Sequence record: MN187550.1
Length of the DNA: 39,293 bases
Direction: 5' to 3' (one strand)
Source: Escherichia phage phiv142-3
The position numbers were made by a program, and so were the translations under genes. The notes under the pieces were generated by a model. The model made no database searches. It was not told the origin of the DNA and was given only the letters and a program-made list of their open reading frames with translations. Of the stretch, positions 128 through 26,564 are shown piece by piece. Position 1 is the stretch's first letter; each line of letters starts with the position of its first letter.

Positions 128-610
128 CTATCTGGTCAGGGTGTCGTACTGTTTTTCGCAGACTCTTCCGGCTTCGGCTGCCCGGTCAGCATACTCTGCC
201 AGTTGTCTATTTCTCTCGAGAGATTTGCTGAACACGTCGGCAAGCAAAACTCCGGTGTCTGCGGCTGACGACCCAGCGCCGACAATGGCGTTATAGTGCC
301 TGAGCTGCTCACGGATGGCAACGAGCTGTTGCTGCAACCGGCCAGCGCGAGCGGCAGCATCAAGAGCATCATTGCGCGCCTGGTCGATCCTCTGCTGCGC
401 TTCACGTTCATTGATCGATTTCTCCTGTTCGTAGTGCTGACGAACTCTCTCATCTTCGGTTTTGCGGTCTTCTTTCGCCTGTGCATACCCAGCGTCGTAC
501 TGACGACTGCCGTGCACATTCCAGGCAACAACTCCTGATATGACCAGAACAGCAAGCACCGCCATGATAATCAACTGTTTACGGTATGCTTTTACGAATG
601 ACCAGATCAT
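128..610 (-). CDS. Rz-like i-spanin (inner-membrane spanin)
   Basis: 160 aa with N-terminal TM segment then charged coiled-coil-like region; directly downstream of endolysin with 4-bp overlap; a lipoprotein ORF is embedded in the +1 frame. Confidence 0.6.
136..411 (-). CDS. Rz1-like o-spanin (outer-membrane lipoprotein) embedded in the i-spanin gene
   Basis: Alternate frame within 136..555 encodes [26 protein letters not shown]: basic n-region, hydrophobic core, lipobox LAGC, then a Pro/Ser-rich mature part. Start at M49 chosen (M62 is the alternative). Confidence 0.5.
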   Translation of the reverse strand: MNVKRSRGSTRRAMMLLMLPLALAGCSNSSLPSVSSSGTITPLSALGRQPQTPEFCLPTCSANLSREIDNWQSMLTGQPKPEESAKNSTTP

Positions 611-1236
611 ACAGCCAGCACCTTACTGGCAGTGACGTACCGCGCGCGCCGGTCGTCGATGCCATTCCTGCCACCATTGATAATCAGAGTTACACGTGCA
701 ATATCGCCGGTATACTTCATGCAACCTTTGCTGGAGAAGAACCACGCCGCGCTACGAGCCGCGTATTCGTCCTGCGCCAACAGTTCAGGATTCTCCAGCA
801 GGTCCACTTTCAGGCCGTTTCCGCAATCACGATAGTTATTCAAACCGGTAATCTGGATAAGTCCGCGGCCACGGTAATTCCAGCCATCGCCGGGGGCATT
901 GTTCCCCATGCGTTTGCTGTACACCAGATTGGCAATCGCTCTCTGGCGCTCAAGTGGCAATGGTGGTTCGCCTGCGCGTCGCCCCAATGCGTTGGCCTGT
1001 CCCTGAGTGAGACGCCCAGCCCGAACAAAGTTAGCCAGACCGCTGACGCTGTAGTTGAAATTCTCCTGCAACCGGGTGAAGCCCCCAGACTCATGCCCGA
1101 CCTGAGCAATAAACATTGCCTGATCTTCTGCTTTGCTGATACCAAACTCTTTCATCGCAGAAGTTATATGCGAGAACCAGCGTGCGGCCAGCGACTCGCT
1201 AATACCAGCAGCTCGCTGGAATTGTTTAATCTCCAT
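607..1236 (-). CDS. endolysin, glycoside hydrolase family 19-like
   Basis: C-terminal 209 aa of ORF 607..1467 (start at MEIKQFQ...) carries the [12 protein letters not shown]...GRGLIQITG pattern typical of GH19-type phage lysins; the upstream extension in the track is hydrophobic and overlaps the preceding gene. Confidence 0.75.
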
Positions 1237-2523: not shown

Positions 2524-4653
2524 CTATTCCTCAATACCTAACCTGCTTGAAACCTCCGGCATAACAGTAACCTGAAGGGTTTTTGATGAATCTGTGTTTT
2601 TAATTGCTATGCTGATATTGCCAGAAGTGCTGTTATTGTTTGACACTGTTATAGAGTTTGCATCCACCCCGAGTTTCGAATAAGCATCAGCAAAACTAAG
2701 ACCAACACTTCCACCAACAACTCTATATGAACCATCAATTCTGAATGACGATATATTGTTATTGCTAACATCTCTAATTAGAACCCATATAGAAACGCCC
2801 CTGAAAACAAGGCTTGCCCCTGATGGTATTTGAAGTGATACAGTTCCTGTGGAACCGGGGGGGATACTGCCAGTATATTTAGTTCCGTGCAGATATTTCC
2901 CCGGTAGGTCTAAATACGATGTGTCTGGATGTAATAAATTATGTATATGTCTGCTATCTATGCTTCCAGACAGAACCATAGAATCATTGCCATATTCAAT
3001 TATCCTTCCACCATCGTTACTTATTGTAAGTAATCCTTTGTTTCCTTTATTGTTTCTAACAGTTATATCAGAAGAATCCAGGCGGACAATTGATATATTT
3101 TTTTCTGATCCATGACAATAATTTGATGAAATTTCACCTGTAACAAGTGACGTACATAAAATGTCTGAACTTCCATCACTGTCGCCAGTAATAGTGTTGC
3201 AGGAAATTAATGCACCATATACCAGACCTGTCGGAGATTCTCCAAATTGCTCTATAGTAATCCGTTTTGTGGTATTTGCTGATATGGTTATATTATGAAC
3301 ATCGTCAGTTTGCGATGTTACTTTGATCCTTGATGAAACGGTATTTCCAGAAATAGTAACATTACTTGTATCATCCACCCATAAATATGACGAAAACGTA
3401 TTACCTGATATGACTGAGTTACTCACCATTGAGTTCTCAAGCTCACATGAACCATAGCTATTGTTATGGTCATAATTTCCTATAATCCTTACAAATCCAT
3501 TCTGGTTAATGAAGTTGTATGATGTTGCATTTTGTCCGCCATAAGTTGAGTTATGTGATGTTTCAGCATTTGTAACGCCTATATGTTGAAAATGACCGGC
3601 ATTTACAGAATCAGGAGCAACTGATGTACACCCTATTACTTTTGTGTTTTTGACAATTCTTGAATTAGGGTCATTCTCCAAATAATAGTTTTTTGCAACA
3701 AATGCCGTAGAGTAAAAGAAACCTTCAAATCTATTAAATAAAATCTGAATATCGTCATAATCTCTTTGGTCTTCATTTGCATAGCAATAAAATGCTCTTG
3801 AAGACTCGGAGTAATCCTTGCATTTCTGAACGCCAGATAAAAGTGTTCGGATTCTGCTAGATTTTATTCTAAATCCGTTGTGAATTAACGTTGCATCACC
3901 AACTAATGTTATTGGCTTAAACAATTCAACCTTATCAAAAACAAATTCACCACCATAAAATCCAAGTATAGCCCCTTCTGGTACTGCATTAATAGCATTT
4001 TGAATTGCTACAGTATCATCTGTTATGCCGTCTCCTTTTGCACCAAAATCACGAACACTAATGGTGTCTCTCATCTTATCCTGGAACGTTCGGTACACAG
4101 CCCCAGAACCATACTGAATAAACCAACCAAAACCACCAACAACCCCGGCGATTGCAGCATCGACATAATTACGCATTGAGCGATTATTTACAGCATCCTG
4201 CTCAAGTGATGGATCTGCAAGGTTAGAAATTCTGTTTTGCTTTGCATCGTAATATTTTGCAAGCAGAGAGGGCTTCATCAATGCACGTCTGAACCACCCA
4301 AAACATTGCTGGATCAGCATCGTCAGGTAGTCAAAGGCATCTTCATGCACTTCGGGGAAAAATTTTCCCTGATTGCGAAGGTCTGTCTCCTGCACTACAT
4401 CAAGCACACGATCTATCGTAATTCGCCATCCAGTAGCAAGCGGAGACAGAAGAACCACAGAACCGCCACTATAAGTGCCCGCCCCAGTTACCGTATAACC
4501 GGTATCCAGGACCAATTCTGTTACGTTCCCGTTCAGGTCAGACACCTGAACAACCAGGTCTGATTTTCTGAAAATTCGAAAAGTATACGGAAACGATGTC
4601 GTAACGCCGTTACCGGTGTATTCGTTGTGGTCAACTTCGGTTGAGACCGTCAT
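2524..4653 (-). CDS. tailspike / tail fibre with depolymerase-like C-terminal domain
   Basis: 709 aa. N-terminal ~200 aa resembles the conserved particle-attachment domain of T7 gp17-type podovirus tail fibres (YTGNGVTTSFPYTF...); from ...VRDFGAKGDGITDDT onward it looks like a pectate-lyase-type beta-helix. The C-terminal coding DNA is clearly AT-rich. Confidence 0.75.
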   Translation of the reverse strand: MTVSTEVDHNEYTGNGVTTSFPYTFRIFRKSDLVVQVSDLNGNVTELVLDTGYTVTGAGTYSGGSVVLLSPLATGWRITIDRVLDVVQETDLRNQGKFFPEVHEDAFDYLTMLIQQCFGWFRRALMKPSLLAKYYDAKQNRISNLADPSLEQDAVNNRSMRNYVDAAIAGVVGGFGWFIQYGSGAVYRTFQDKMRDTISVRDFGAKGDGITDDTVAIQNAINAVPEGAILGFYGGEFVFDKVELFKPITLVGDATLIHNGFRIKSSRIRTLLSGVQKCKDYSESSRAFYCYANEDQRDYDDIQILFNRFEGFFYSTAFVAKNYYLENDPNSRIVKNTKVIGCTSVAPDSVNAGHFQHIGVTNAETSHNSTYGGQNATSYNFINQNGFVRIIGNYDHNNSYGSCELENSMVSNSVISGNTFSSYLWVDDTSNVTISGNTVSSRIKVTSQTDDVHNITISANTTKRITIEQFGESPTGLVYGALISCNTITGDSDGSSDILCTSLVTGEISSNYCHGSEKNISIVRLDSSDITVRNNKGNKGLLTISNDGGRIIEYGNDSMVLSGSIDSRHIHNLLHPDTSYLDLPGKYLHGTKYTGSIPPGSTGTVSLQIPSGASLVFRGVSIWVLIRDVSNNNISSFRIDGSYRVVGGSVGLSFADAYSKLGVDANSITVSNNNSTSGNISIAIKNTDSSKTLQVTVMPEVSSRLGIEE

Positions 4654-5152: not shown

Positions 5153-5242
5153 ATTTACATCGCACTCCTCTTGTGCCATAGTAATCGGGCACTGGCAAAA
5201 TCCAGTGCCGGGATTGGTCTCCCGGATTACTAAGTGGCGCAT

Positions 5243-5265
5243 ACCACGCCAGACGTGGTTTTTTT
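5243..5265 (+). terminator. intrinsic terminator (ACCACG-loop-CGTGGT plus T7 tract) in the antirepressor leader
   Basis: GC-rich hairpin followed by TTTTTTT; preceded by two more hairpins (about 5188-5226); about 160 nt upstream of the antirepressor ATG. Confidence 0.5.
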
Positions 5266-5423
5266 ATGCGTATAGCACAGTCATGCCAGAATTATGGTGG
5301 GCTGAATGGGGGTCCGAAAGGACGCCGGTACCACTTAGGCCGGTAAGACCAACTCCGTTCAGTTCACCACCATCTGATTGGTCTCAGCGGTGGTGATGTA
5401 ATTCGCTAAGTGGAGACGCCATC

Positions 5424-19183: not shown

Positions 19184-19621
19184 TTAACCAGTTACTTTTG
19201 AGCGGATCGGATACGGCGTATTGGCATCAACATCAAGACTGATACCCGCAGTGAATTCGCCAGCCGTTAGTGGGCCAGTTGCGACGGAGTAGTTAACACG
19301 CAGATATCGCTGAACACCGGCAGGCACCTTTGCAGAAACAACTCGTTTACCTGCTGTCAGGGCGGTCTTTGCCAATGCGCCACTATCATAAATAGTGGTC
19401 CATGAGCTGTTATTCTCACTCGTCTGCAACTGGATGTTTACAGTTGCATCACCGCTTGCTGCGGCGGCTGTGTTAACCAGCGCCCAAAACTCAAGCGGGT
19501 AACCCACGCCGATATCACGACGTTTTCCGTCAATTGGACCGAGATCGATTACGTCAGTAGAAGCCGCGGTATTCGTAACCGCCTGAGCTTCGGAGAACAT
19601 CAACAGTTTGTCGGTGATCAT
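19184..19621 (-). CDS. putative capsid decoration / minor capsid protein
   Basis: 145 aa immediately downstream of the major capsid gene; Ala/Thr/Gly-rich. Confidence 0.45.
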   Translation of the reverse strand: MITDKLLMFSEAQAVTNTAASTDVIDLGPIDGKRRDIGVGYPLEFWALVNTAAAASGDATVNIQLQTSENNSSWTTIYDSGALAKTALTAGKRVVSAKVPAGVQRYLRVNYSVATGPLTAGEFTAGISLDVDANTPYPIRSKVTG

Positions 19622-19672
19622 CTTCTTTCTCCATTAGTGGGTCTGTTACGACCCACAGGTTAATAACAGGCG

Positions 19673-20665
19673 TTACACCACGCGGGCTTCTGTTTCCAGA
19701 AGCGCATCAGTTTCACGGATTGGTACACCACGGAATGAAGTCCACCACTCGCCTTCTGTCTCTTTTACGCTGATCGCCAGAGATGTTTTCTCCAGAGATT
19801 GCAGATCAAGAGCCTGGCCTACAGTGCGGTTCATGTAGAACACCGGGCGACCCATGCCACGGTTTGGAATGCGATGCAGTGCTTTAACCATCAACTTCGC
19901 AATATTTGCGGCAGAGGAAGGTTCTGAAAGATTGCTGACATCGATGTTTGCAATGCGAACAACATAACGCCAGTCACGCAGAGCAAGTCCGTTGTCCCAT
20001 TTGTAATGGGTACGGTAGCCTTCGTACTTGCCGCCATTAGCATCTTCCAGTGTCACCTGGCCTTTATCTTCCATCTGGATGCCAGCCTTCTGCCCTTTCG
20101 GGAAGATGCCATGCACGGTGTTTTCGCCCCACACCACTAACCAGATTGAGGTGTTATCTGTACCCGTGCCACCAGCATCAATGATGTTCTGAGCATTACC
20201 CGCAGACAGGCTGGAATAGCGGGAGGACAGTCCCATAAACTGCTGAGGGTTAACGCTGGAATCACCATAAAACAACGTCTGCGCCATCTGCTGATTCATC
20301 GCTTCAATAAATGCGCGGTCTTCAGACAGGCGGAATTCGGCGGTATTACCGTTCAGATCAGCCAGTGACTTATCGACTTCAGCATAGGTTTCCAGCATTC
20401 CAACGGAATCGGTGACCTGCACTGTGGTTGATTTGCTTGGCTGTACGCCATAGTTCAGCAAACGCCAGGTGGCTGAAGGTAAACCAGAACGAATGGTGGT
20501 TCGGTGTCCGGTAGGAAGGTTCCCTTCGACAAAAGGCATATCCTGAAGGATCGGGTTAGTTTGACCGAGAAGCTCGATAATCTTATCGACTTTCCCGTTT
20601 GGATCGACGCGCTTACCCCAGTCAGCCAGCGTTAGCGCAGTTAAGCCTTTAACAGCCATTGTCAT
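19673..20665 (-). CDS. major capsid protein
   Basis: 330 aa directly after the scaffold-like gene; size and position typical for podovirus coat proteins. Confidence 0.7.
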   Translation of the reverse strand: MTMAVKGLTALTLADWGKRVDPNGKVDKIIELLGQTNPILQDMPFVEGNLPTGHRTTIRSGLPSATWRLLNYGVQPSKSTTVQVTDSVGMLETYAEVDKSLADLNGNTAEFRLSEDRAFIEAMNQQMAQTLFYGDSSVNPQQFMGLSSRYSSLSAGNAQNIIDAGGTGTDNTSIWLVVWGENTVHGIFPKGQKAGIQMEDKGQVTLEDANGGKYEGYRTHYKWDNGLALRDWRYVVRIANIDVSNLSEPSSAANIAKLMVKALHRIPNRGMGRPVFYMNRTVGQALDLQSLEKTSLAISVKETEGEWWTSFRGVPIRETDALLETEARVV

Positions 20666-20673
20666 TTCCTCTC

Positions 20674-21375
20674 TTATTTGCCATAGAGCACTTCGGCCGC
20701 ACTACGCTGGCCTTCATTACCACCGGTGACCATGCCATCTTCAGACATCGCCTTTCCGATTTTCACGAACGTTTTGACCAGATCAGGGTGATTACCCAGC
20801 CCGGTGGTGTTCAGATATTCTTTGAGCTCAGGTGTCCCGAACTGGTCAAGCGCACGCTGTGCGGCGCTAAGGTTAGAAATCAACTTGTCGCCACCGATTT
20901 CTTTGTCAGCTTTTACATCCGCAGCCCACTGCTCGGTTGTTTTCTGCCAGGCTTCTGCCTGGCGCTGCTGAACACCTGCCAGAATCTTCGGATAAGCATC
21001 AACCAGCTTTTGCGCTTGCTCGTTGGTCAGGTTAAGTTCTCGCGCCACCGGCTCGAATTCCTTCAACGCTTCTGTATCCAGCTCTACGCCTTCGGCAGCC
21101 TGAAACTCGTACTTCTCAGGCGCACCCTCTGGTTTATTGCCGTCCTTTTTTTCATCCTGCTTATCGTTTTCAGGCTTTTTGTCATCAGCAGGTTTATCGC
21201 CATCAGCAACAGGTTGTGGCTTATCACCTTCCTGTTGTGATGGATCACCAACAGGAGCAGGGTTATCACCTGCAGGCGCTGACGGTTCTGACGCAGCCGG
21301 AGCTGCTCCACCATCGACTGGTTGCTCATTGCAAAGACGGCGATACAGCAAACGCTCAAATAAATTCATGATCAC
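20674..21375 (-). CDS. scaffolding protein
   Basis: 233 aa, low-complexity acidic Pro/Ala/Asp/Lys-rich N-terminus and helical charged C-terminus; between portal and capsid. Confidence 0.6.
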   Translation of the reverse strand: MIMNLFERLLYRRLCNEQPVDGGAAPAASEPSAPAGDNPAPVGDPSQQEGDKPQPVADGDKPADDKKPENDKQDEKKDGNKPEGAPEKYEFQAAEGVELDTEALKEFEPVARELNLTNEQAQKLVDAYPKILAGVQQRQAEAWQKTTEQWAADVKADKEIGGDKLISNLSAAQRALDQFGTPELKEYLNTTGLGNHPDLVKTFVKIGKAMSEDGMVTGGNEGQRSAAEVLYGK

Positions 21376-21668
21376 TCCTGTTCACTGGCCTCTTTGGCCA
21401 TCTTCAAATACTGTTCAGGGCAATGCGCTATAACGCGCTGAAACAGTTCCAGCGCCAGATTGCGTTGCCCCTCATTAAATGCCATTGCCATAGCGTCCAT
21501 CGGTGAGATAGCGGAAAACACACGGCCTTTCTCCAGCACCGACCAGACAACGCGACGCCCCTGTTCACTGCTCATGACAAAGCGAATGTCATCAATTTCA
21601 CGCTGCGCCATGTCACGTTGCTTACGGGCGTTTTCTTCTTTCAGTTGATCGTCTTCGTAATCTGTCAT
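21372..21668 (-). CDS. hypothetical protein between portal and scaffold
   Basis: 98 aa, charged; overlaps both neighbours by 4 bp. Confidence 0.5.
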   Translation of the reverse strand: MTDYEDDQLKEENARKQRDMAQREIDDIRFVMSSEQGRRVVWSVLEKGRVFSAISPMDAMAMAFNEGQRNLALELFQRVIAHCPEQYLKMAKEASEQE

Positions 21669-23344
21669 TGTGATTGCCCACCCTGACCACTAACTGCATT
21701 CGCCATAGCTGACAACACACTCGGATCTGAAGTTTTAGCTTCGCTTAGCGTCTTGGCACCCTGTGCCGCAGCCATCCCCATCGCCATCATTTGTTGCTGC
21801 TGTTGCTGCTGTGCCCGTTGCTGGCGAGCCTGCTCAACCTGTTCCTGCGGAACAATGACGGTTGGAGACACTCCAGACATATCAGCGAATGCATCGATCG
21901 CCTGATCAACGTTGAGTTTGTCGAGAGCTTCTGGTTTCGCTTGCGCAAGTTGACCAATGAAGTTGACCGTAGACGCCAGACTGGACAGGCCGATAGACTT
22001 CTGCGCCTGAGCCATGACGGAAATGTATTCGACCTTCAGGGGCATACCTTCCATCGCGTCAGGCGGTGGCGGCAGCATGTTTTTACGCACCATCATCGAG
22101 AAAGCGCGGTCAATGAGAGGATTAAGACATTCGTCGTTCAGACGCTCCAGAACCGGCCCCAACATCAGAAGTTTTTCTTCTTTCATTTCGATCACCGCTT
22201 CAACAGGCATCGAACGGGTATTGATGTTCTGCAACATCATGAACAGATCGACAAAGTAGGCGCTGTTAATGATTTGGCGAGTATCCTGAATGTCTGCTAC
22301 CAGATCTGCTGTACTTGGGTTAACCAGATAAGCAGGCCTGAAACCATCCTGACCAGTAATCTGATCGATATACGTGATGTCGCCAGGAAGAAGGGAGGCG
22401 CGCTGATTCTTGAGGGAAGTCGGAGCAACCATCGGCGGATTGGTGGCTTTATCAATCAACTGCGACTTGCGCTTCTGAAGAAGCTGCAATGCCTTAACAG
22501 GTCCAAGCGCCAGCATACCAGGGCATGATGATCCATAAACATCTTCGCCGTTAACTTCCCAGCGCGGAGCCATAATTGGAAACTCATCGAATCCGGACTC
22601 ACGCAACAACTTGTCGTTATCGCCACCAACCTCGTAATAAACCGATTTGAATGGCTTGTTCTTGCTATCCAGCTTCGATGTATCGCGGTCAATGTTCGGG
22701 TAAACCGAATGCATCACTTCAATCCACTTCTCGTAGGTACCGCTTTCCCACATGCTTTTTACGGATTCGCTGACGTTATTTAGCCCGAACTCCTGAACAA
22801 GCTGACGAACAGTCATAGAGAACTTGCGAAAACAGGTGTCCACACTGCCACGAGGTGAGTTAGCCAGATAGTAACTGCCTATCGGGAATGGCATTGTGCG
22901 AATGATGTCCTCGTCATCCTCCAGCACCGCCATTGCACCAGTGCTGTATGTGCCGAGGCTTCCGTATAACTGCGGAAGAGACTGGTAGAGATTCGACTTA
23001 TTGAACATATCGTTCATGCGGTTCTGCACCGCCTCAAGCCACAACTTAACAGGGCCATAATCCATCATTTCAGGATCTGGCGTAGCCAGGCGAAACCACG
23101 GACGCGCGGGGCTTGTGATGCCTGACATCATGCCGCTGGCGAGAGTGCGCGCCGCCATAGTCCCGGTCGAATCAATAATGCGTGTATTGCGTCGATCGTT
23201 ACGGTTGACCTCAGAAGTCAGAAAGCGGGAACCACGCGGGTTGATGTAATCACTCAACTCGCGCCAGTGCGGCTCGAACGACTGACGCTCGCTTTCAAGT
23301 TGTGCGAACTGTTTGTTCAATCGCTCTTTAGTTGTTTCCGCCAT
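21665..23344 (-). CDS. portal (head-to-tail connector) protein
   Basis: 559 aa; position after terminase; Gln/Ala-rich C-terminal tail. Confidence 0.75.
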   Translation of the reverse strand: MAETTKERLNKQFAQLESERQSFEPHWRELSDYINPRGSRFLTSEVNRNDRRNTRIIDSTGTMAARTLASGMMSGITSPARPWFRLATPDPEMMDYGPVKLWLEAVQNRMNDMFNKSNLYQSLPQLYGSLGTYSTGAMAVLEDDEDIIRTMPFPIGSYYLANSPRGSVDTCFRKFSMTVRQLVQEFGLNNVSESVKSMWESGTYEKWIEVMHSVYPNIDRDTSKLDSKNKPFKSVYYEVGGDNDKLLRESGFDEFPIMAPRWEVNGEDVYGSSCPGMLALGPVKALQLLQKRKSQLIDKATNPPMVAPTSLKNQRASLLPGDITYIDQITGQDGFRPAYLVNPSTADLVADIQDTRQIINSAYFVDLFMMLQNINTRSMPVEAVIEMKEEKLLMLGPVLERLNDECLNPLIDRAFSMMVRKNMLPPPPDAMEGMPLKVEYISVMAQAQKSIGLSSLASTVNFIGQLAQAKPEALDKLNVDQAIDAFADMSGVSPTVIVPQEQVEQARQQRAQQQQQQQMMAMGMAAAQGAKTLSEAKTSDPSVLSAMANAVSGQGGQSQ

Positions 23345-23358
23345 TTCAATGACTCCGG

Positions 23359-23565
23359 TTACTGACCAAGCAGCGTTTTACCGCTGGTATTAGCGGTTGA
23401 TGTGTCGCCCTGAGAACCGGTAAGCAGCGTAGAACTACGACCAGCAGCAGCGCGACGGCGACGAGTTTCTTCGTCGCGGGCATCAACAACGGCGGCATCC
23501 TGCTCCTGTGGTGCTGCCTGAACTTCTGGTGTTGCAGGCACTGACGGTGAGCTACCCATGCACAT
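23359..23565 (-). CDS. hypothetical small protein upstream of portal
   Basis: 68 aa; GGAG about 8 nt upstream of the ATG; low-complexity sequence, so coding status is uncertain. Confidence 0.3.
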   Translation of the reverse strand: MCMGSSPSVPATPEVQAAPQEQDAAVVDARDEETRRRRAAAGRSSTLLTGSQGDTSTANTSGKTLLGQ

Positions 23566-23655
23566 ATCAATGACTCCGTACGCAATTAAATTATTACCAA
23601 TTTAACCACATATGATTTATTTATCGTAGATAGTTGACATTTAACGCACGAATTA

Positions 23656-23670
23656 TTACCTTTCAGGTAA
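23656..23670. promoter_or_regulatory. operator-like palindrome TTACCTTTCAGGTAA (site S4, identical to S1)
   Basis: Perfect copy of the S1 15-mer in the non-coding region between portal and tRNA; a TTGACA hexamer lies 17 bp upstream. Confidence 0.55.
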
Positions 23671-23992
23671 GTAAAGGGTTCATTCCGGTTATTAACCTGA
23701 CTGGCTTATCGTTAAATTGAACAGGTGGAGTGAGCTTTTATTTTGAGCAGTACGGCGTATGGCACATGCGCCGATAGCGGTCTGGATACGTTTAAGGGGC
23801 ACCCTCCCTTGCTCGGGCAAACGAACCAGGTAGCCGGAATGTGCAAGTCGAGCGGTTTTATTCCGCGCACGGGGATTCACCATCCCGGCGATTCGGTGTG
23901 ACACCTCGGAAGAGACGAGGGTGCAACGATGAGAGCATTTATGGAGCCGCGACAAAGTGTGGCGCCTTAACAGGCTAAGTGCTCTCAGCGTT

Positions 23993-24069
23993 GTGGCATT
24001 AGCTCAGTTGGACAGAGCAACCGCCTTCTAAGCGGTTGGTCGCAGGTTCGAATCCTGCATGCCACGCCA
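23993..24069 (+). tRNA. tRNA-Arg (anticodon UCU)
   Basis: Hand-folded cloverleaf: 7-bp acceptor stem GTGGCAT/ATGCCAC, D-arm GCTC...GAGC, anticodon stem ACCGC/GCGGT with loop CTTCTAA, T-arm GCAGG-TTCGAATC-CTGC, discriminator G and encoded CCA. Confidence 0.85.
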
Positions 24070-24112
24070 GAATCACGCCTAAGGACCGTGATGCCAGAAG
24101 TTCCAGGTGCTT

Positions 24113-24257
24113 GGCGGTGATGGTTTCCCTTGAAGGACTATCACCGCCCTTTTTACAGCAGGACGCCATTGCGATGACTTCATGCTGTAAACCCGTACAG
24201 CCACGGAAGGCAGAACTCATTGCTTCCAGTTCGCCCGGTTCGCCGGGCATTTTTTTA
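24113..24257 (+). terminator. two terminator-like hairpins downstream of the tRNA
   Basis: GGCGGTGAT...ATCACCGCC followed by CTTTTT (24113-24164), and GCCCGG-TTCG-CCGGGC followed by ATTTTTTT (24233-24257). Confidence 0.55.
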
Positions 24258-24299
24258 AGGTGTGAATCATGAAATACGAATTCGATGGATTTTAATGTC

Positions 24300-24342
24300 G
24301 TGACACGTCACAAACAGCCAGCCGATGAGCTGGCTTTGTTTT
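24300..24342. terminator. palindrome GTGACACGTCAC followed by hairpin AGCCAGC-loop-GCTGGCT and T tract
   Basis: Second copy of the GTGACA(Y)GTCAC palindrome, 4 bp from a hairpin with TTGTTTT; lies just after the terL stop in the convergent junction with the tRNA island. Confidence 0.5.
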
Positions 24343-24385
24343 ATCCTCACCAGAGGATATCAGCAGCATTATCCCCTCCAGAGGA

Positions 24386-25861
24386 TTAAGCATAGGGATC
24401 GTAATCTGTAATGGCCTTGCCTTGCTGGTTCTGCTGCCCGGGAATTCGCAGGCGCTTTGACACCGGGAAAGCAAACGTCAGCAGTAGCGCATCGCCTTTA
24501 CCCGGCGAACGCCCAAGTCGCTCTTTGATATCTTCCTTCTGTTCGATAACGATTTTACCGTCCACGCGAACTTTGTACTCTGCCGTCGACAGGTCGTCCG
24601 CTGTTTCCTGGTCATCCAGCATCCCGCCCAGCCTCAGCCATGTCTTGCATGAGTTGAACATCTCCCCACGCTTGTTGAGCATCTGCGGGTCAGTAGACGC
24701 GCCACCGAACGGAACAAGTTGCCATGTACGACCCCAGCCGTCACCGATTGACTTCAGACCAGTTCCGTAACCGAAGTCGATGAACACTGCGTCAGCCTGG
24801 TACTGGTCTTCAAAGTCAGCGATACGCTTCGCCATTATCAGATCGTCAGTGGTCTTGTTGCCAGTCCACAGCACCTTACTGTGCAGCCCCTGCCGCAGGT
24901 ATATCACCGCGTCATCAACGCCTGAATATGCCGGGTCAACACCGATTATCACCGGAGCATGTGCCACCTGCGCAGCGGTTACCACCCGTTTCATTGCCTC
25001 ATCAGTAAGACCGGTAGGGATAAACTGCAATTCAGATGCATCAGGGAATATGCCGCGCACACGGATTTTAACGAAGTCGCTGTCTTCCCCGTAGTCATCA
25101 ACCCATTTCTGCAACTGCTGTTTGTTAGTACCTTCCACCGTCCGGCTGTCAATCTGCGCAGTTTTCCAGCGGTGTTTGTATTTGCGGAAACATTCGCGAA
25201 AACGCCCGGTATTACGTGTAGGGTTTCCGAACGCCACCCAGATAATCTCAGTGTCTTCGTCCGTAAGCGCACCCTCAGCAACTTCCCACACCAGATCCGC
25301 AATGTTCGACGCTTCATCGAATACCACGATGATGCGTTTGCGCTCGTTGTGTAGTCCGGCGAATGCCTCAGTGTTGTGCTCAGACCAGGGGATTGCGTCA
25401 GCTCGCCACCGCTTGTCGTGCCCAGGATCATTGCTGTACATCGCAGTAGCGGTACAGGTAAACCAGTCTTTCGTGATAGCAAGGTTCGACCACTTGATAA
25501 TTTCCGGCCAGGTCTTCGTTCGTAGCTGGTTGTCGGTGTTGGCGGTCACCACGACCTTACAATCCTCGCAAGTGGACATGCCCCAGTTGATCAGCATTGA
25601 GATGAATGCGGATTTACCAATACCGTGACCAGAAGCGCGTGCCAGCATAAGCGGCTGATAGCGCGTCTCTGGATTCTGCAGGTGATCACGTATCTCTCGG
25701 AACGCATCAGCCTGCCACTGACGTGGGCCGGTAGCATGTGCCAGTTCAGTCCCCTCTTCCCCCCACGGGAACGCATAGAGGGCATAGCCAAGCGGATCGT
25801 GAGTGAACCCTGCAATATCCTCGATCAACTGCTCTTCAGGAGATAACGCTGTATCTGTCAC
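24386..25861 (-). CDS. terminase large subunit
   Basis: 491 aa with a Walker A-like ...ASGHGIGKSAF... ATPase motif and nuclease-like acidic C-terminal region; downstream of the small-subunit gene with 4-bp overlap. Confidence 0.85.
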   Translation of the reverse strand: MTDTALSPEEQLIEDIAGFTHDPLGYALYAFPWGEEGTELAHATGPRQWQADAFREIRDHLQNPETRYQPLMLARASGHGIGKSAFISMLINWGMSTCEDCKVVVTANTDNQLRTKTWPEIIKWSNLAITKDWFTCTATAMYSNDPGHDKRWRADAIPWSEHNTEAFAGLHNERKRIIVVFDEASNIADLVWEVAEGALTDEDTEIIWVAFGNPTRNTGRFRECFRKYKHRWKTAQIDSRTVEGTNKQQLQKWVDDYGEDSDFVKIRVRGIFPDASELQFIPTGLTDEAMKRVVTAAQVAHAPVIIGVDPAYSGVDDAVIYLRQGLHSKVLWTGNKTTDDLIMAKRIADFEDQYQADAVFIDFGYGTGLKSIGDGWGRTWQLVPFGGASTDPQMLNKRGEMFNSCKTWLRLGGMLDDQETADDLSTAEYKVRVDGKIVIEQKEDIKERLGRSPGKGDALLLTFAFPVSKRLRIPGQQNQQGKAITDYDPYA

Positions 25862-26454
25862 TGATTACCATCCTGACGTTCTTTGAGTCGCTTCCTGGCT
25901 GCCGCTATGCGATCAGCAATTGTCACATTCACATTAACATCCAGGCGTTCTTTGAATGCATTGACGTCGACGTGCTTACCAATCAGTTCGAGGTTCTTCA
26001 CCTTGTCAGGCCATTTAATTTTTTTGAGAATTGTCTCTATCGAATCCTCGTTCATGTTCATGATGGTCGATGACAGATCAAAGCCACTAAGCGTAGTGCG
26101 CCAGATTTTCGGCCACTCGCGGATTGGCTTAAGGCTCCCATCGTCATTGAGGATATCAATCACGTCCATCTGGTCGATCTCCACCAGGCGCATGAGAACG
26201 TAATCGGCACTGACGCGCATTCGTTTGTTGCGCTCCTCCATCAACTCGGCAATCCGTTTTTGAATGCGTTCATCGCGCATCATGACACTGGCTTTAACTG
26301 CCGCTGTATTTGGGGAGAATCCTGCGTTAATCGCTGCCTGAGTCTGGTTTTCAGGCGTTTTGATGTATGACTGGCAATAAGCCTCCTGCATTGCGGTTAG
26401 TGGCTTAAATTGCGTTGATTTGCGTTTATAGGTTTTAGGTTCAGCAGGCATCAT
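25858..26454 (-). CDS. terminase small subunit
   Basis: ORF 25858..26532; start moved to an internal ATG (MMPAEPK...) preceded by GGTGG, because the N-terminal extension would cover operator site S11 and a terminator. Confidence 0.6.
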   Translation of the reverse strand: MMPAEPKTYKRKSTQFKPLTAMQEAYCQSYIKTPENQTQAAINAGFSPNTAAVKASVMMRDERIQKRIAELMEERNKRMRVSADYVLMRLVEIDQMDVIDILNDDGSLKPIREWPKIWRTTLSGFDLSSTIMNMNEDSIETILKKIKWPDKVKNLELIGKHVDVNAFKERLDVNVNVTIADRIAAARKRLKERQDGNQ

Positions 26455-26471
26455 AACCACCATGGTAATTG

Positions 26472-26486
26472 TTACCGTTGTGGTAA
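26472..26486. promoter_or_regulatory. operator-like palindrome TTACCGTTGTGGTAA (site S11) about 20 bp upstream of the terminase small-subunit start
   Basis: Perfect TTACC/GGTAA arms; between an intrinsic terminator and the terS RBS. Confidence 0.5.
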
Positions 26487-26496
26487 TAGCACCATG

Positions 26497-26523
26497 CAAA
26501 ATAAAGCCGCCATAGTTGGCGGC
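26497..26523 (-). terminator. intrinsic terminator in the late-operon leader (GCCGCC-loop-GGCGGC plus TTTATTTT on the minus strand)
   Basis: Hairpin and T tract read on the minus strand between the zinc-ribbon gene and terS. Confidence 0.55.
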
Positions 26524-26564
26524 AGTATTCAAAACCCATCAAATTCATCATGCATAATCTACTC

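Follow-up and report, generated by a model that had tools for sequence, protein, structure and literature searches.

A widespread structured leader RNA beside a tRNA-Arg(UCU) gene in Escherichia phage phiv142-3 and its possible role in terminator read-through

Introduction

The put element of phage HK022 is a cis-acting RNA of ~70 nt, folded into two stem-loops, that modifies RNA polymerase for processive antitermination (PMC9378689). The RNA family described here resembles put in that its conserved core, in lambdoid phages, lies just downstream of the leftward early promoter, at the place of lambda nutL and HK022 putL, with terminators next, and in that the operon has no N-like protein, an RNA-only logic. 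It differs from put in size and architecture (~180 nt and four helices, plus further domains) and in number, with one core copy per phage as against two for put, and read-through is a proposal here. Homology to putL/putR was rejected: a blastn comparison with HK022 (word size 7) gave one chance 13-mer inside nun, and the covariance model of the core, R1, found nothing in HK022, where the putL region is unrelated. In the put system, read-through in cis depends on the zinc-binding domain of the RNA polymerase β′ subunit.

The leader position after an early promoter is also that of the lambda nut sites, where a single-stranded boxA and a boxB hairpin serve Nus factors and the N protein with its arginine-rich motif, and of the boxB-boxA-boxC leaders of rrn operons. 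The 3′ arm of the hairpin that follows the core (hairpin B; GUGCUCUCAGCG) resembles boxA, and a few truncated variants (L092) carry the exact rrn-type UGCUCUUUAACAA. In copies of the L092 type, this boxA lies beside a terminator that serves a convergent gene, and the leader to which it belongs may be a rearranged one. Phage mEp460, one of the carriers, is named after the mEp collection, whose defining trait was Nus dependence (PMC11893012). In contrast to lambda nut, the boxA-like arm is engaged in the stem of hairpin B and variable in sequence (CGCCGUUUCCG, AGUCAUCUUCG), no N-like gene lies downstream, and the core greatly exceeds a nut site in size. Recruitment of Nus factors by a boxA in hairpin B was rejected because the arm is paired and not conserved as boxA, and is kept as a lead only.

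GOLLD and ROOL are large structured RNAs that are associated with phages and lie close to tRNAs or surround them. Like these and the T4 species 1 and 2 RNAs, the present element is a multi-domain RNA of several hundred nucleotides in phages and prophages, with tRNAs adjacent or embedded; unlike GOLLD and ROOL, it has no Rfam match, was found in Enterobacterales only and forms an operon leader with terminators and a downstream cargo gene. The arrangement also recalls a moron, as the unit is inserted, in opposite orientation, between the terminase and the head genes and has a promoter-like site, terminators and cargo that varies among relatives. It departs from a moron in its 590-nt conserved RNA leader, in the two terminators upstream of the cargo and in the absence from phiv142-3 of the cargo gene that is present in phiV10 and epsilon15 (PF13876). 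The tRNA itself shows no difference from argN/argO of Stx phages or from the tRNA-Arg of SPC32H, SPN9TCW and the O157 typing phages, which share its anticodon and presumed AGA/AGG decoding; the gene is identical in close relatives.

Here we analyze the locus in phiv142-3, a phiV10/epsilon15-like phage (Uetakevirus). The window, that is, the whole stretch of DNA analyzed, comprises 39,293 nt (MN187550.1), and a preliminary description made from its letters alone had drawn attention to a tRNA island that interrupts the terminase-portal operon.

Results

The island and its putative operator

The island, 820 bp in length, separates terL from the gp3-portal genes; the tRNA is on the plus strand, and terL, gp3 and portal are on the minus strand (Table 1). 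The gp3-like ORF at its left boundary is homologous to phiV10p06 and epsilon15 gp3 (PHROG 831, E=2.4e-36). Upstream of this ORF, ~60 nt are nearly identical among phiv142-3, phiV10 and epsilon15, the coding DNA beside them being only ~80% identical to epsilon15, and the epsilon15 record annotates IHF and repressor sites in the equivalent DNA. A sigma-70 consensus scan of this segment found no promoter; the segment is presumed to be a regulatory or promoter region for the head genes. The island had been described as non-coding, which holds for phiv142-3 but not for phiV10 and epsilon15, in which a plus-strand PF13876 gene of 121–123 aa lies between terminators 2 and 3.

Both the operator copy and the TTGACA hexamer that the preliminary description placed in the upstream flank were recovered. 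The operator agrees at 16 of 17 positions with the palindrome ATTACC-N5-GGTAAT of epsilon15, the comparison being based on seven epsilon15 sites annotated as repressor binding sites, and TTACC-N5-GGTAA occurs in 10 copies in phiv142-3 against 0.02 expected; we regard the copy in the island as a putative Uetakevirus repressor operator. The hexamer (23634–23639), which taken alone is at chance level, recurs in epsilon15 with an unchanged distance to the operator and a different spacer sequence. Together with a weak −10 hexamer (TACCTT) located inside the operator it may form a promoter, although this candidate fails the sigma-70 consensus scan. The core starts ~80 nt past the operator-overlapped putative promoter, and the 5′ leader between them resembles the 3′ half of the long CAAC...GUUG-type hairpins of other copies. 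As judged from sequence, the island is best explained as a self-contained plus-strand transcription unit, which the phage repressor probably silences in the lysogen.

Table 1 Features of the island and its borders, with positions in the phiv142-3 window ('.' denotes no assigned strand).
Feature	Position	Strand	Basis or remark
Portal	21665–23344	−	Next after gp3-like ORF
gp3-like small ORF, 68 aa	23359–23565	−	First gene of portal/head block; left boundary of island
AT-rich conserved intergenic DNA upstream of gp3	23566–23633	.	ATTACC half-site at 23593
Putative promoter, TTGACA / 17-nt spacer / TACCTT	23634–23662	+	Sequence reading; presumed function
Putative repressor operator, ATTACC-TTTCA-GGTAAG (ATTACCTTTCAGGTAAG)	23655–23671	.	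Match to annotated epsilon15 sites
5′ leader, presumed transcription start to core	23669–23745	+	Sequence comparison
Conserved structured RNA core, ~180 nt, four helices	23746–23926	+	Covariance model R1 and covariation
Helix Ha	23753–23761/23765–23773	+	Supported by covariation
Helix Hb	23780–23785/23826–23831	+	Core helix
Helix Hc	23872–23875/23883–23886	+	Core helix
Possible pseudoknot, CACC with GGUG	23878–23881/23895–23898	+	One covarying pair
Helix Hd	23904–23908/23916–23920	+	Core helix
Hairpin B, closing stem CAACGAUGAGAGCA / UGCUCUCAGCGUUG, variable interior	23924–23993	+	MFE fold and covariation
tRNA-Arg, anticodon UCU	23993–24069	+	ARAGORN and Rfam; fills slot C of leader
Hairpin D, AUCACG-N9-CGUGAU	24073–24093	+	Kept in 22 distinct relatives
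Terminator T1, 14-bp stem and U5 tract	24113–24155	+	Scan (hairpin 24113–24148); about −22 kcal/mol
Hairpin E, UUUACAGC...GCUGUAAA	24152–24191	+	RNAalifold consensus, two covarying pairs
Hairpin F, GGAAG...CUUCC	24206–24227	+	Conserved block; pairing weakly supported
Terminator T2, GCCCGG-UUCG-CCGGGC and U7	24233–24256	+	Scan (hairpin 24233–24248); directly adjoins RBS
RBS AAGGUG and cargo slot	24257–24295	+	Alignment with phiV10 and epsilon15
Hairpin T3	24316–24345	.	Plus-strand scan (24316–24335); in reverse serves terL end
terL	24386–25861	−	Right boundary of island

A conserved structured RNA core

The preliminary description had suggested that the structured flanks of the tRNA could hide further RNAs, and the upstream flank indeed belongs to a widespread structured RNA family. 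Model R1 found a single copy in phiv142-3, with a score of 150.5 bits. Across 31 diverse copies, 95.2% of the cells in the four core helices were paired, compared with 28–46% in slid controls, and 12 pairs exhibited compensatory changes; none of 500 shuffles attained the observed value. The supported helices contained 138 G-U/U-G combinations versus 2 A-C/C-A combinations; this excess places the core RNA on the plus strand. The fold of the whole 597-nt leader had a z value of −5.15. The core is an unannotated structured RNA family of the plus strand.

Comparison with Rfam 15 revealed no match of the core at E<=10; over positions 23300–24700 nothing besides the tRNA had E<0.1 (GOLLD, ROOL, C4/isrK, 6S, tmRNA and riboswitches included), and over the mEp460 leader nothing fell below E=1. 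A full-text search of the literature, with conserved sequence strings and for the tRNA of phiV10, epsilon15 and SPC32H, the P1 ban leader and prophage leader RNAs, returned no description of the element. The core also holds long invariant single-stranded stretches, e.g., GGCGAUNCGGUGUGAC. RNAalifold offered a long-range alternative in which GCACAU pairs with AUGUGC; because all of its columns are invariant, this pairing is neither supported nor excluded, and the local hairpin Ha covaries. A riboswitch reading of the leader was rejected, because 190 nt, including the whole tRNA, separate the core from T1 and no closing helix is linked to the terminator.

The tRNA-Arg(UCU) gene and codon use

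A tRNA-Arg(UCU) on the strand opposite to terminase and portal, as proposed from the letters, was called by ARAGORN as the single tRNA of the whole phiv142-3 sequence and scored 73.3 bits with the Rfam tRNA model RF00005 (gathering score 29; E=2.4e-14). Its 3′ CCA is encoded (24068–24070), and the cmscan alignment together with the sequence gave an anticodon loop CUUCUAA and an A following G18-G19 in the D loop; A20 and C35 are identity elements for ArgRS. A tRNA-Arg is annotated at the matching gene in O157 typing phages 9 and 10, SPN9TCW and SPC32H, so that this ordinary tRNA is already known in the phage group. The phiV10 record has no tRNA annotation, and the antisense ORF p04 is annotated in its place. 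The tRNA is a passenger of the island, not part of its core: epsilon15 has the island but not the tRNA, and no tRNA adjoins ~70% of the homologous RNA elements found elsewhere.

The ORFs of phiv142-3 use AGA and AGG at 7.9 and 5.7 per 1000 codons, respectively. They cluster in the genes for the tailspike (15 AGA) and for tail and ejection proteins; the capsid, portal and terminase genes have almost none. As cargo of the leader, the tRNA would be freed by the normal tRNA-processing enzymes, presumably with RNase P, and would decode AGA in the tailspike, tail and ejection genes, which are rich in this codon; the likely benefit is translation of the tailspike and tail genes. In other phages, slot C is occupied by a 135-nt multi-hairpin closed by GUGGUG/CACCAC. 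A degenerate tRNA in slot C of the lambdoid copies was rejected, as ARAGORN with relaxed thresholds gave only noise on both strands; the cloverleaf-like topology of this slot in lambdoid copies is an MFE prediction only.

Modules 3′ of the core

The leader is arranged in the order core, hairpin B, slot C, hairpin D, T1, hairpins E and F, T2, RBS and cargo-gene slot. The last G of hairpin B is position +1 of the tRNA. The arms of this hairpin covary, with 23 distinct versions that include GAGAGCA/UGCUCUC, GAGAGUA/UACUCUC, AAGCGCA/UGCGCUC and AAAGGCG/CGCCGUU; the pairs of hairpin D are nearly invariant and for this reason yield no covariation evidence. Compensatory changes occur in relatives both in the T1 stem and in T2, where GG/CC is replaced by AC/GU in a double change, and lambdoid phages have a T1-homologous terminator (GGCGGU...ACCGCYCUUUUUACA) after the element. 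Hairpin E takes the last three U of the T1 tract into its 5′ arm, and would therefore form only on transcripts that have passed T1.

No sigma-70-like promoter was found between T1 and the cargo gene; since T2 also adjoins the cargo RBS, a cargo gene would be expressible only by read-through. The slot of phiv142-3 contains only an 8-codon ORF (MKYEFDGF-stop, 24269–24295), and this empty form is also present in several E. coli prophages; other relatives have other genes in the slot. The plus-strand scan detected four terminator-like hairpins, compared with 1.7 ± 1.5 in shuffles, among them the three successive ones of the preliminary description, and T1, T2 and T3 are predicted to be intrinsic (Rho-independent) terminators. 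The T3 hairpin is annotated in the phiV10 record as the terminator after terL.

Distribution and genomic contexts

The core RNA was present, never annotated, in 1850 of 5426 complete E. coli genomes (about a third) and in many unrelated temperate phages, with Stx2c/Stx2k phages and the epsilon15 group also among the carriers; prophage e14 of E. coli K-12 has no copy. In 50 of 100 loci, the nearest upstream ORF on the same strand encodes a CI-type repressor (HTH+S24), and these repressors belong to at least six families. The mEp460 core begins ~30 nt past a putative operator-flanked promoter. In P1, the copy lies between trnI and ban in an operon headed by a perfect C1 operator pair; it starts ~10–25 nt past the 3′ end of a tRNA, in the middle of the operon and with no terminator close downstream. 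Analysis of the 600-nt windows downstream of the element revealed a terminator of −15 kcal/mol or stronger in 103 of 126 (82%), versus 265 of 1574 background windows. The first ORFs of the downstream operons are YfdQ-like, ParB-like and others, none of them N-like. A tRNA-Arg follows the element in 21 of 109 loci, and a tRNA(CAU) precedes it in 12 of 109.

Discussion

We propose, at a probability of roughly 0.4, that the leader is a cis-acting terminator read-through (antitermination) element, similar to HK022 put in action and unrelated to it. The product would be a multi-domain structured leader RNA of ~590 nt, extending from about 23669 to 24256, whose core would act in cis on the RNA polymerase that transcribes it; enzymes that started at the island promoter would then pass the strong T1 and T2 into the cargo-gene slot, and transcripts begun elsewhere would stop at the terminators. 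This proposal is favored by the maintenance through covariation of hairpin E, a structure past T1, by the homology of T1 between the Uetakevirus and lambdoid copies, and by the lack of an N-like protein at the start of the downstream operons; further points in its favor are the candidate promoter with its operator, the plus-strand structure of the core, its place after CI-type repressor genes, the terminators downstream of most copies and the T2-RBS junction. Against it count the dissimilarity of the core to HK022 putL in sequence or structure, the one copy per phage, as opposed to a left and a right one in put and nut systems, the mid-operon position in P1 away from any nearby downstream terminator, the weak −10 that fails the promoter scan, and the boxA-like arm of hairpin B that is not conserved as boxA. 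Moreover, with the cargo slot of phiv142-3 empty, polymerases that read through would have no evident gene to express and would continue into terL in the antisense direction. We give slightly less credence to the broader reading that the core and its modular 3′ domains constitute a new class of phage leader RNA, which would reprogram E. coli RNA polymerase, alone or with Nus factors, for processive read-through, as a second put-like system, structurally unrelated, with slots for tRNAs and cargo.

The main rival, which we consider less likely, is a processed trans-acting RNA: the leader would be the gene for a stable non-coding RNA that, early in the lytic cycle, binds or sequesters a conserved host factor such as a protein of defence or RNA metabolism. 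The primary transcript would normally end at T1, and RNase P, by cutting immediately before the tRNA or before the cloverleaf-like module of other phages, would free the core and hairpin B as an RNA of ~320 nt. The junctions fit such processing, as hairpin B adjoins tRNA position +1 exactly, the P1 core follows closely on the 3′ end of a tRNA, and the lambdoid junction GUU/GUGG opens the 135-nt module with its 9-bp closing stem and three arms. The strong terminator that comes next in 82% of loci and the predicted repressor control of the unit in three unrelated phage groups are likewise consistent with it, and long single-stranded stretches without variation, such as GGCGAUNCGGUGUGAC, point to a conserved partner. 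The T4 species 1 and 2 RNAs are co-transcribed with tRNAs, the P4 CI RNA is made by RNase P, and 3′ETS-leuZ is another precedent. However, hairpin E and the T2-RBS junction lie beyond T1 and are conserved, which indicates that transcripts passing T1 matter, and the P1 copies have no terminator of their own. The put RNA works also when untethered from its transcript (PMC9378689), and action in trans is therefore not exclusive of action in cis.

It is improbable that the flanks form no more than a scaffold for the processing and stability of a phage tRNA operon, derived in part from decayed tRNA genes and with no regulatory role, whose structure would guide maturation by RNase P, RNase E or RNase III and protect the tRNA and the downstream mRNA. 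The two arrangements in which tRNAs flank the element, the T-arm-like fragments (GGUUCGAUUCC or GGUUCAAUUCC) in hairpin B or slot C of other phages, and the RNase III site that the epsilon15 authors annotated in the equivalent region agree with a scaffold, but most copies (~70%) have no tRNA beside them and the core has no tRNA-like fold, relaxed ARAGORN giving noise on both strands. In addition, the conservation of the core is far above the need of a processing spacer, and a scaffold leaves the fixed position after CI repressor genes unexplained.

A function of the conserved structure on the minus strand, such as that of an RNase III site within the late terminase-to-portal transcript, is very improbable: the RNase III feature of epsilon15 is annotated on the late-gene strand of the homologous region and the minus strand folds well too (z = −2.83), but the G-U combinations would be mismatches on that strand, an asymmetry that largely refutes this reading, and the P1 and lambdoid elements are co-oriented with tRNAs and early genes. 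Hardly credible, and refuted for practical purposes by frames and lengths, is a degenerate protein-coding remnant in the upstream flank: mechanical ORFs exist at 23743–23901 (+) and 23692–23955 (−) and the element carries hypothetical-protein annotations in several database records, but these annotations fall on different strands in different records, no frame is open across homologues (in every frame, some homologue has a stop-free stretch of at most 19 codons, in agreement with the earlier view that no convincing ORF lies upstream), the lengths are not multiples of 3, and the substitutions in helices are compensatory.

Should the core prove to act in cis as an antiterminator, HK022 put would be the one other RNA-only, polymerase-modifying system known from phages, and the present one would be much more widespread, being common to lambdoid phages of many immunity types, P1-like plasmid prophages and epsilon15-like podoviruses. 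Such a system would explain how the leftward early operon of N-less lambdoid phages is expressed past a strong leader terminator, and how an expression cassette is reused by the insertion of cargo genes and tRNAs. Whatever the mechanism, this is a covariation-supported, unannotated RNA family of high prevalence in the best-studied bacterium and in P1, and its recognition corrects spurious ORF annotations, such as phiV10p04 and mEp460 gp36/gp37.

A conserved structured RNA in the upstream flank

The preliminary description saw no convincing ORF upstream of the tRNA and proposed that the structured flanks could hide RNA; both points were borne out: no frame stays open across homologues, and the sequence on that side of the tRNA proves to be a structured RNA that is conserved. 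In an alignment of 31 diverse cores (A3), the four core helices (Ha, Hb, Hc and Hd) had standard pairs in 95.2% of cells and compensatory changes in 12 of the 24 core pairs; none of 500 shuffles reached the observed helix values, and sliding the partners by 1–3 columns lowered pairing to 28–46%. Invariance of a 19-mer in the alignment is partly an artefact of its use as search pattern. Because the helices contain 138 G-U or U-G pairs versus 2 A-C or C-A, the core RNA is read from the plus strand, that of the tRNA. This asymmetry effectively excludes a minus-strand function, as does the absence of any conserved frame for coding remnants. The Hc loop CACC may form a pseudoknot with a downstream GGUG, with one covarying pair (C-G to A-U, 3 sequences). 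No model in Rfam 15 matched the core at E ≤ 10, and full-text literature searches for conserved strings of the RNA family and for the relevant phages gave no match. The ORFs that database records place over the structured RNA (phiV10p04; mEp460 gp36/gp37; phiSTEC1575 genes 14–16) differ in strand from record to record and are probably spurious.

A distant-mode search with the island matched unrelated temperate phages at 72–83% identity: P1, P7, D6, SJ46 and RCS47; the lambdoid phages mEp460, cdtI, Ayreon and 2H10; Stx2c- and Stx2k-converting phages; phages of Klebsiella, Enterobacter and Salmonella; and two phages labelled Stenotrophomonas phages. The annotation beneath these matches was nearly always none, or short 'hypothetical proteins' on either strand. 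The element was present in 1850 of 5426 complete E. coli genomes, at 1935 chromosomal and 554 plasmid places, with no annotated feature at the copies among the 40 records listed, and its 19-mer recovered at least 120 IMG/VR contigs. In a one-genome-per-species search with a different pattern, true matches, judged by covariance model, came only from Enterobacterales (Escherichia, Citrobacter, Enterobacter, Klebsiella, Kosakonia, Kluyvera, Phytobacter, Pseudescherichia, Pseudocitrobacter and Erwinia dacicola), plus one 1.7-kb contig binned as Bacillota. The covariance model from A3 found a single copy in the window, a 79-nt remnant in epsilon15 and no copy in HK022. Each phage carries one copy only.

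Positions of features in the window and in related loci.
Feature	Position	Strand	Basis or remark
Tailspike ORF	2524–4653	−	
Repressor-operator copies flanking isrK/C4	4758, 5138, 6153		
isrK	5189–5265	+	Rfam, 67.7 bits
C4 antisense RNA	5290–5374	+	Rfam, 61.2 bits
ORF after isrK/C4	5424–6080		Homologue of phiV10p23
Stretch compared for AGA/AGG	19184–26532	−	Capsid, protease, portal, terL, terS
Portal ('head-tail adaptor' in RefSeq)	21665–23344	−	phiV10/epsilon15 annotation
Small gp3-like gene	23359–23565	−	phiV10/epsilon15 annotation
Near-invariant stretch	23566–23633		
TTGACA hexamer	23634–23639		
Predicted operator copy ATTACCTTTCAGGTAAG	23655–23671		
Folded stretch (597 nt)	23666–24262		
Core RNA	23746–23926	+	Covariance model, 150.5 bits
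Match to unrelated temperate phages	23752–23990		Distant-mode search
Hb-enclosed loop	23790–23815		UUCCCUUGA-like motif
tRNA-Arg (anticodon TCT)	23993–24069	+	ARAGORN; Rfam
ORF antisense to tRNA	23999–24250	−	phiV10p04
Terminator-like hairpins	24113–24148, 24233–24248, 24316–24335	+	Scan
T1 loop	24122–24140		UUCCCUUGA-like motif
ORF MKYEFDGF*	24269–24295 (L003: 4085–4111)	+	
terL	24386–25861	−	phiV10/epsilon15 annotation
terS	25858–26532	−	phiV10/epsilon15 annotation; mechanical ORF
Operator copy in terS ORF	26472–26486		
ORFs overlapping RNA, locus L009	3443–3996		
ORFs overlapping RNA, locus L010	3426–3803		
C1 operator pair, P1 (L006)	434–461		End of dmt
Terminator, P1 (L006)	621–650	+	8-bp G+C-rich stem, 7-T run

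Modular leader architecture

As judged from about 25 representative copies, the whole island is one modular leader. It folded to −239.5 kcal/mol over 597 nt versus −203.7 ± 7.0 in shuffles (z = −5.15). After the core comes hairpin B. Its closing stem (CAAC.../...GUUG) is conserved, its arms covary strongly, and its interior is variable, with insertions or tRNA fragments in some phages. The next position, slot C, is occupied in the window by the tRNA, whose G+1 is the final base of hairpin B, and in lambdoid phages by a multi-hairpin of 135 nt; GUUGUGGUG/CACCACAAC closes the latter, and its minimum-free-energy topology is cloverleaf-like. Hairpin D (AUCACG...CGUGAU) is followed by the first terminator, T1, a stem GGCGGU.../...ACCGCC then CUUUUUACA, which is recognisably alike in Uetakevirus and lambdoid copies. 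Hairpin E covaries. Its 5' arm shares the final U residues with the T1 tract, which restricts its formation to transcripts that have read through T1. Hairpin F lies between E and the second terminator, T2, which shows a double compensatory change in relatives and has the ribosome-binding site of a cargo-gene slot directly 3'. The last hairpin, T3, doubles as terminator after terL. A scan recovered the three terminator-like hairpins noted after the tRNA.

Similar GUUCCCUUGAUGCU stretches occur in the Hb-enclosed loop and the T1 loop. Epsilon15 lacks the rest of the core, hairpin B, slot C and hairpin D, an arrangement that looks like a deletion between the two stretches. The UUCCCUUGA-like motif common to these loops (L008 and L003) could be a shared binding site, or merely a recombination substrate. 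In the IMG/VR loci L016, L043, L107, L080 and L101, tRNA fragments, e.g. T-arms GGUUCGAUUCC or GGUUCAAUUCC, lie in the hairpin B interior or slot C, and L101 has there a tRNA-like sequence with a long insertion; this suggests repeated tRNA gain and decay, or insertions, at these points. In three truncated IMG/VR variants, a hairpin follows the core just 3' of Hd, and after it comes an rrn-type boxA, exact or nearly so (UGCUCUUUAACAA in L092, AGCUCUUUAAUAA in L036, AGCUCUUUAAAAA in L049); the hairpin can also be read as terminating a convergent gene on the opposite strand. L100 and L011 ('Stenotrophomonas' phage BUCT708) carry GGAAAGACC and TGACCAGC repeat arrays 300–600 nt downstream of the core, after the leader. 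Some of these repeats are small hairpins like helix Hd (CCGG-GAAAGA-CCGG), and the arrays may be iteron-like sites in DNA or repeated protein-binding sites in RNA.

The island, its neighbours and its cargo

The island of the preliminary description is the 820 bp that separate terL from the gp3-like gene. phiV10 and relatives (genus Uetakevirus, epsilon15 group) match the island and flanks at 97–98% identity in reverse orientation; the island as a unit is already a known, though poorly annotated, feature of the genus. The upstream operator copy and TTGACA hexamer noted previously were both recovered, the former as a match to the seven annotated repressor-binding sites of the epsilon15 record (ATTACC-N5-GGTAAT). 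The operator core TTACC-N5-GGTAA occurs 10 times in the window versus 0.02 expected. A weak putative −10, TACCTT, lies 17 bases downstream of TTGACA inside the operator; a consensus promoter scan rejected this pair. In epsilon15, TTGACA and operator are conserved and the spacer between them differs. The near-invariant stretch before gp3 and the epsilon15 IHF/repressor annotations suggest that late terS-terL transcription may stop at T3 and restart upstream of gp3.

A further operator copy falls in the opening codons of the terS ORF as read from its TTG start. The phiV10 annotation has the same long form, and epsilon15 has a shorter terS with the equivalent operator upstream of it; the real start is probably downstream of the operator. 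Elsewhere in the window, adjoining isrK and C4 RNAs, flanked by three operator copies, are followed by a Bro-N antirepressor-like gene; the region resembles a c4-ant immunity module of the P1/P7 type, here in an epsilon15-like phage.

A 121–123-aa plus-strand gene of Pfam PF13876 (N4 gp49/Sf6 gp66 family) lies between the second and third terminators of phiV10 and epsilon15; in other relatives the genes at this point differ. From the window the PF13876 gene is cleanly missing, leaving the ribosome-binding site AAGGTG and only an 8-codon ORF, MKYEFDGF*, which is conserved with an epsilon15 counterpart (MKDEFDRF*) overlapping the cargo-gene stop codon. The palindrome GTGACACGTCAC and then T3 follow this ORF. 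Several E. coli prophages also have an empty slot.

tRNA-Arg and codon use

ARAGORN identified the proposed tRNA-Arg as the sole tRNA in 39 kb, and the Rfam tRNA model agreed (73.3 bits, E = 2.4e-14); CCA is encoded. This tRNA is already known, being annotated in E. coli O157 typing phages 9 and 10, SPN9TCW and SPC32H. The phiV10 record lacks the annotation and has antisense ORF p04 instead; epsilon15 keeps the island without the tRNA. The suggested codon check gave AGA 7.9 and AGG 5.7 per 1000 codons in a rough gene set from the window; in E. coli K-12 the values are about 2 and 1. The distribution was uneven: 15 AGA and 5 AGG in the 709 codons of the tailspike ORF, 3–8 AGA in each large tail or ejection gene, and almost none of either in the capsid, protease, portal, terL and terS genes. 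The usual codon-supply reading therefore applies to the tail end of the late genes and some early genes. The AGA/AGG concentration also fits a horizontally exchanged tailspike module.

Genomic contexts elsewhere

An HTH plus S24-peptidase (CI/LexA-type) repressor was the nearest same-strand upstream ORF in 50 of the 100 loci whose upstream DNA was long enough. At least six unrelated families are represented among these repressors, and HTH-only repressors occur at further loci. In mEp460, the core begins just past the repressor-gene terminator, about 30 nt downstream of a putative promoter with TTGCA-N5/6-GCAA palindromes on either side; nutL of lambda and putL of HK022 occupy this position. 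The first downstream genes were YfdQ-like, ParB-like and others; no N-like gene was among them. In P1, the core comes after tRNA(CAU) and before ban, with no nearby terminator downstream; the operon that contains it has a perfect C1 operator pair at its head. The P1 operator and its overlapping inverted partner are followed about 170 nt on by a strong terminator, both preceding tRNA-Asn, tRNA-Thr, tciABC, tRNA(CAU), the RNA element and ban. In 103 of 126 non-identical loci, the 600 nt after the core contained a terminator of −15 kcal/mol or stronger, versus 265 of 1574 background windows (same loci and strand). Among 109 IMG/VR loci, tRNA-Arg(UCU) directly followed hairpin B, as in the window, in 21, tRNA(CAU) directly preceded the core, as in P1, in 12, and 76 had no adjacent tRNA.

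Possible function of the leader

The structured RNA family lies in the leader of repressor-controlled early operons in three unrelated phage groups. By sequence comparison, a predicted repressor operator heads the plus-strand unit, strong, selectively maintained predicted terminators separate the core from the first downstream gene, and the predicted RNA structure is conserved past the first of them. From these four points we infer that cargo expression needs read-through of T1 and T2; a scan detected no promoter between T1 and the ribosome-binding site. Polymerases started at the putative island promoter would have to pass both terminators, and the conserved core is the obvious candidate device, with a cis action resembling that of HK022 put. 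The tRNA would mature from the same transcript, and the RNase P cut at its 5' end would also free the core and hairpin B. We assign this cis read-through leader with a co-transcribed tRNA a probability of roughly 40%. In the window, read-through would only run antisense into terL because the cargo slot is empty.

HK022 put is closest in logic, although the core RNA family failed the homology test; put RNA reportedly stays with the polymerase after being severed from the transcript (PMC9378689). A nut site is ruled out for the family, with no N and no conserved single-stranded boxA. What the family has in common with GOLLD, ROOL and the T4 species 1 and 2 RNAs is only the general tendency of large, structured RNAs of phages to accompany tRNAs.

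The main rival, somewhat unlikely, is that the freed RNA of about 320 nt (core plus hairpin B) is itself the product, acting in trans on a conserved host factor; it and cis read-through are mutually compatible. That the flanks are purely a processing or stability scaffold is improbable, as this leaves unexplained the ~70% of copies without a tRNA and the fixed position after repressor genes. The weight of the RNA family lies in its prevalence and its easy testability in P1 and E. coli.
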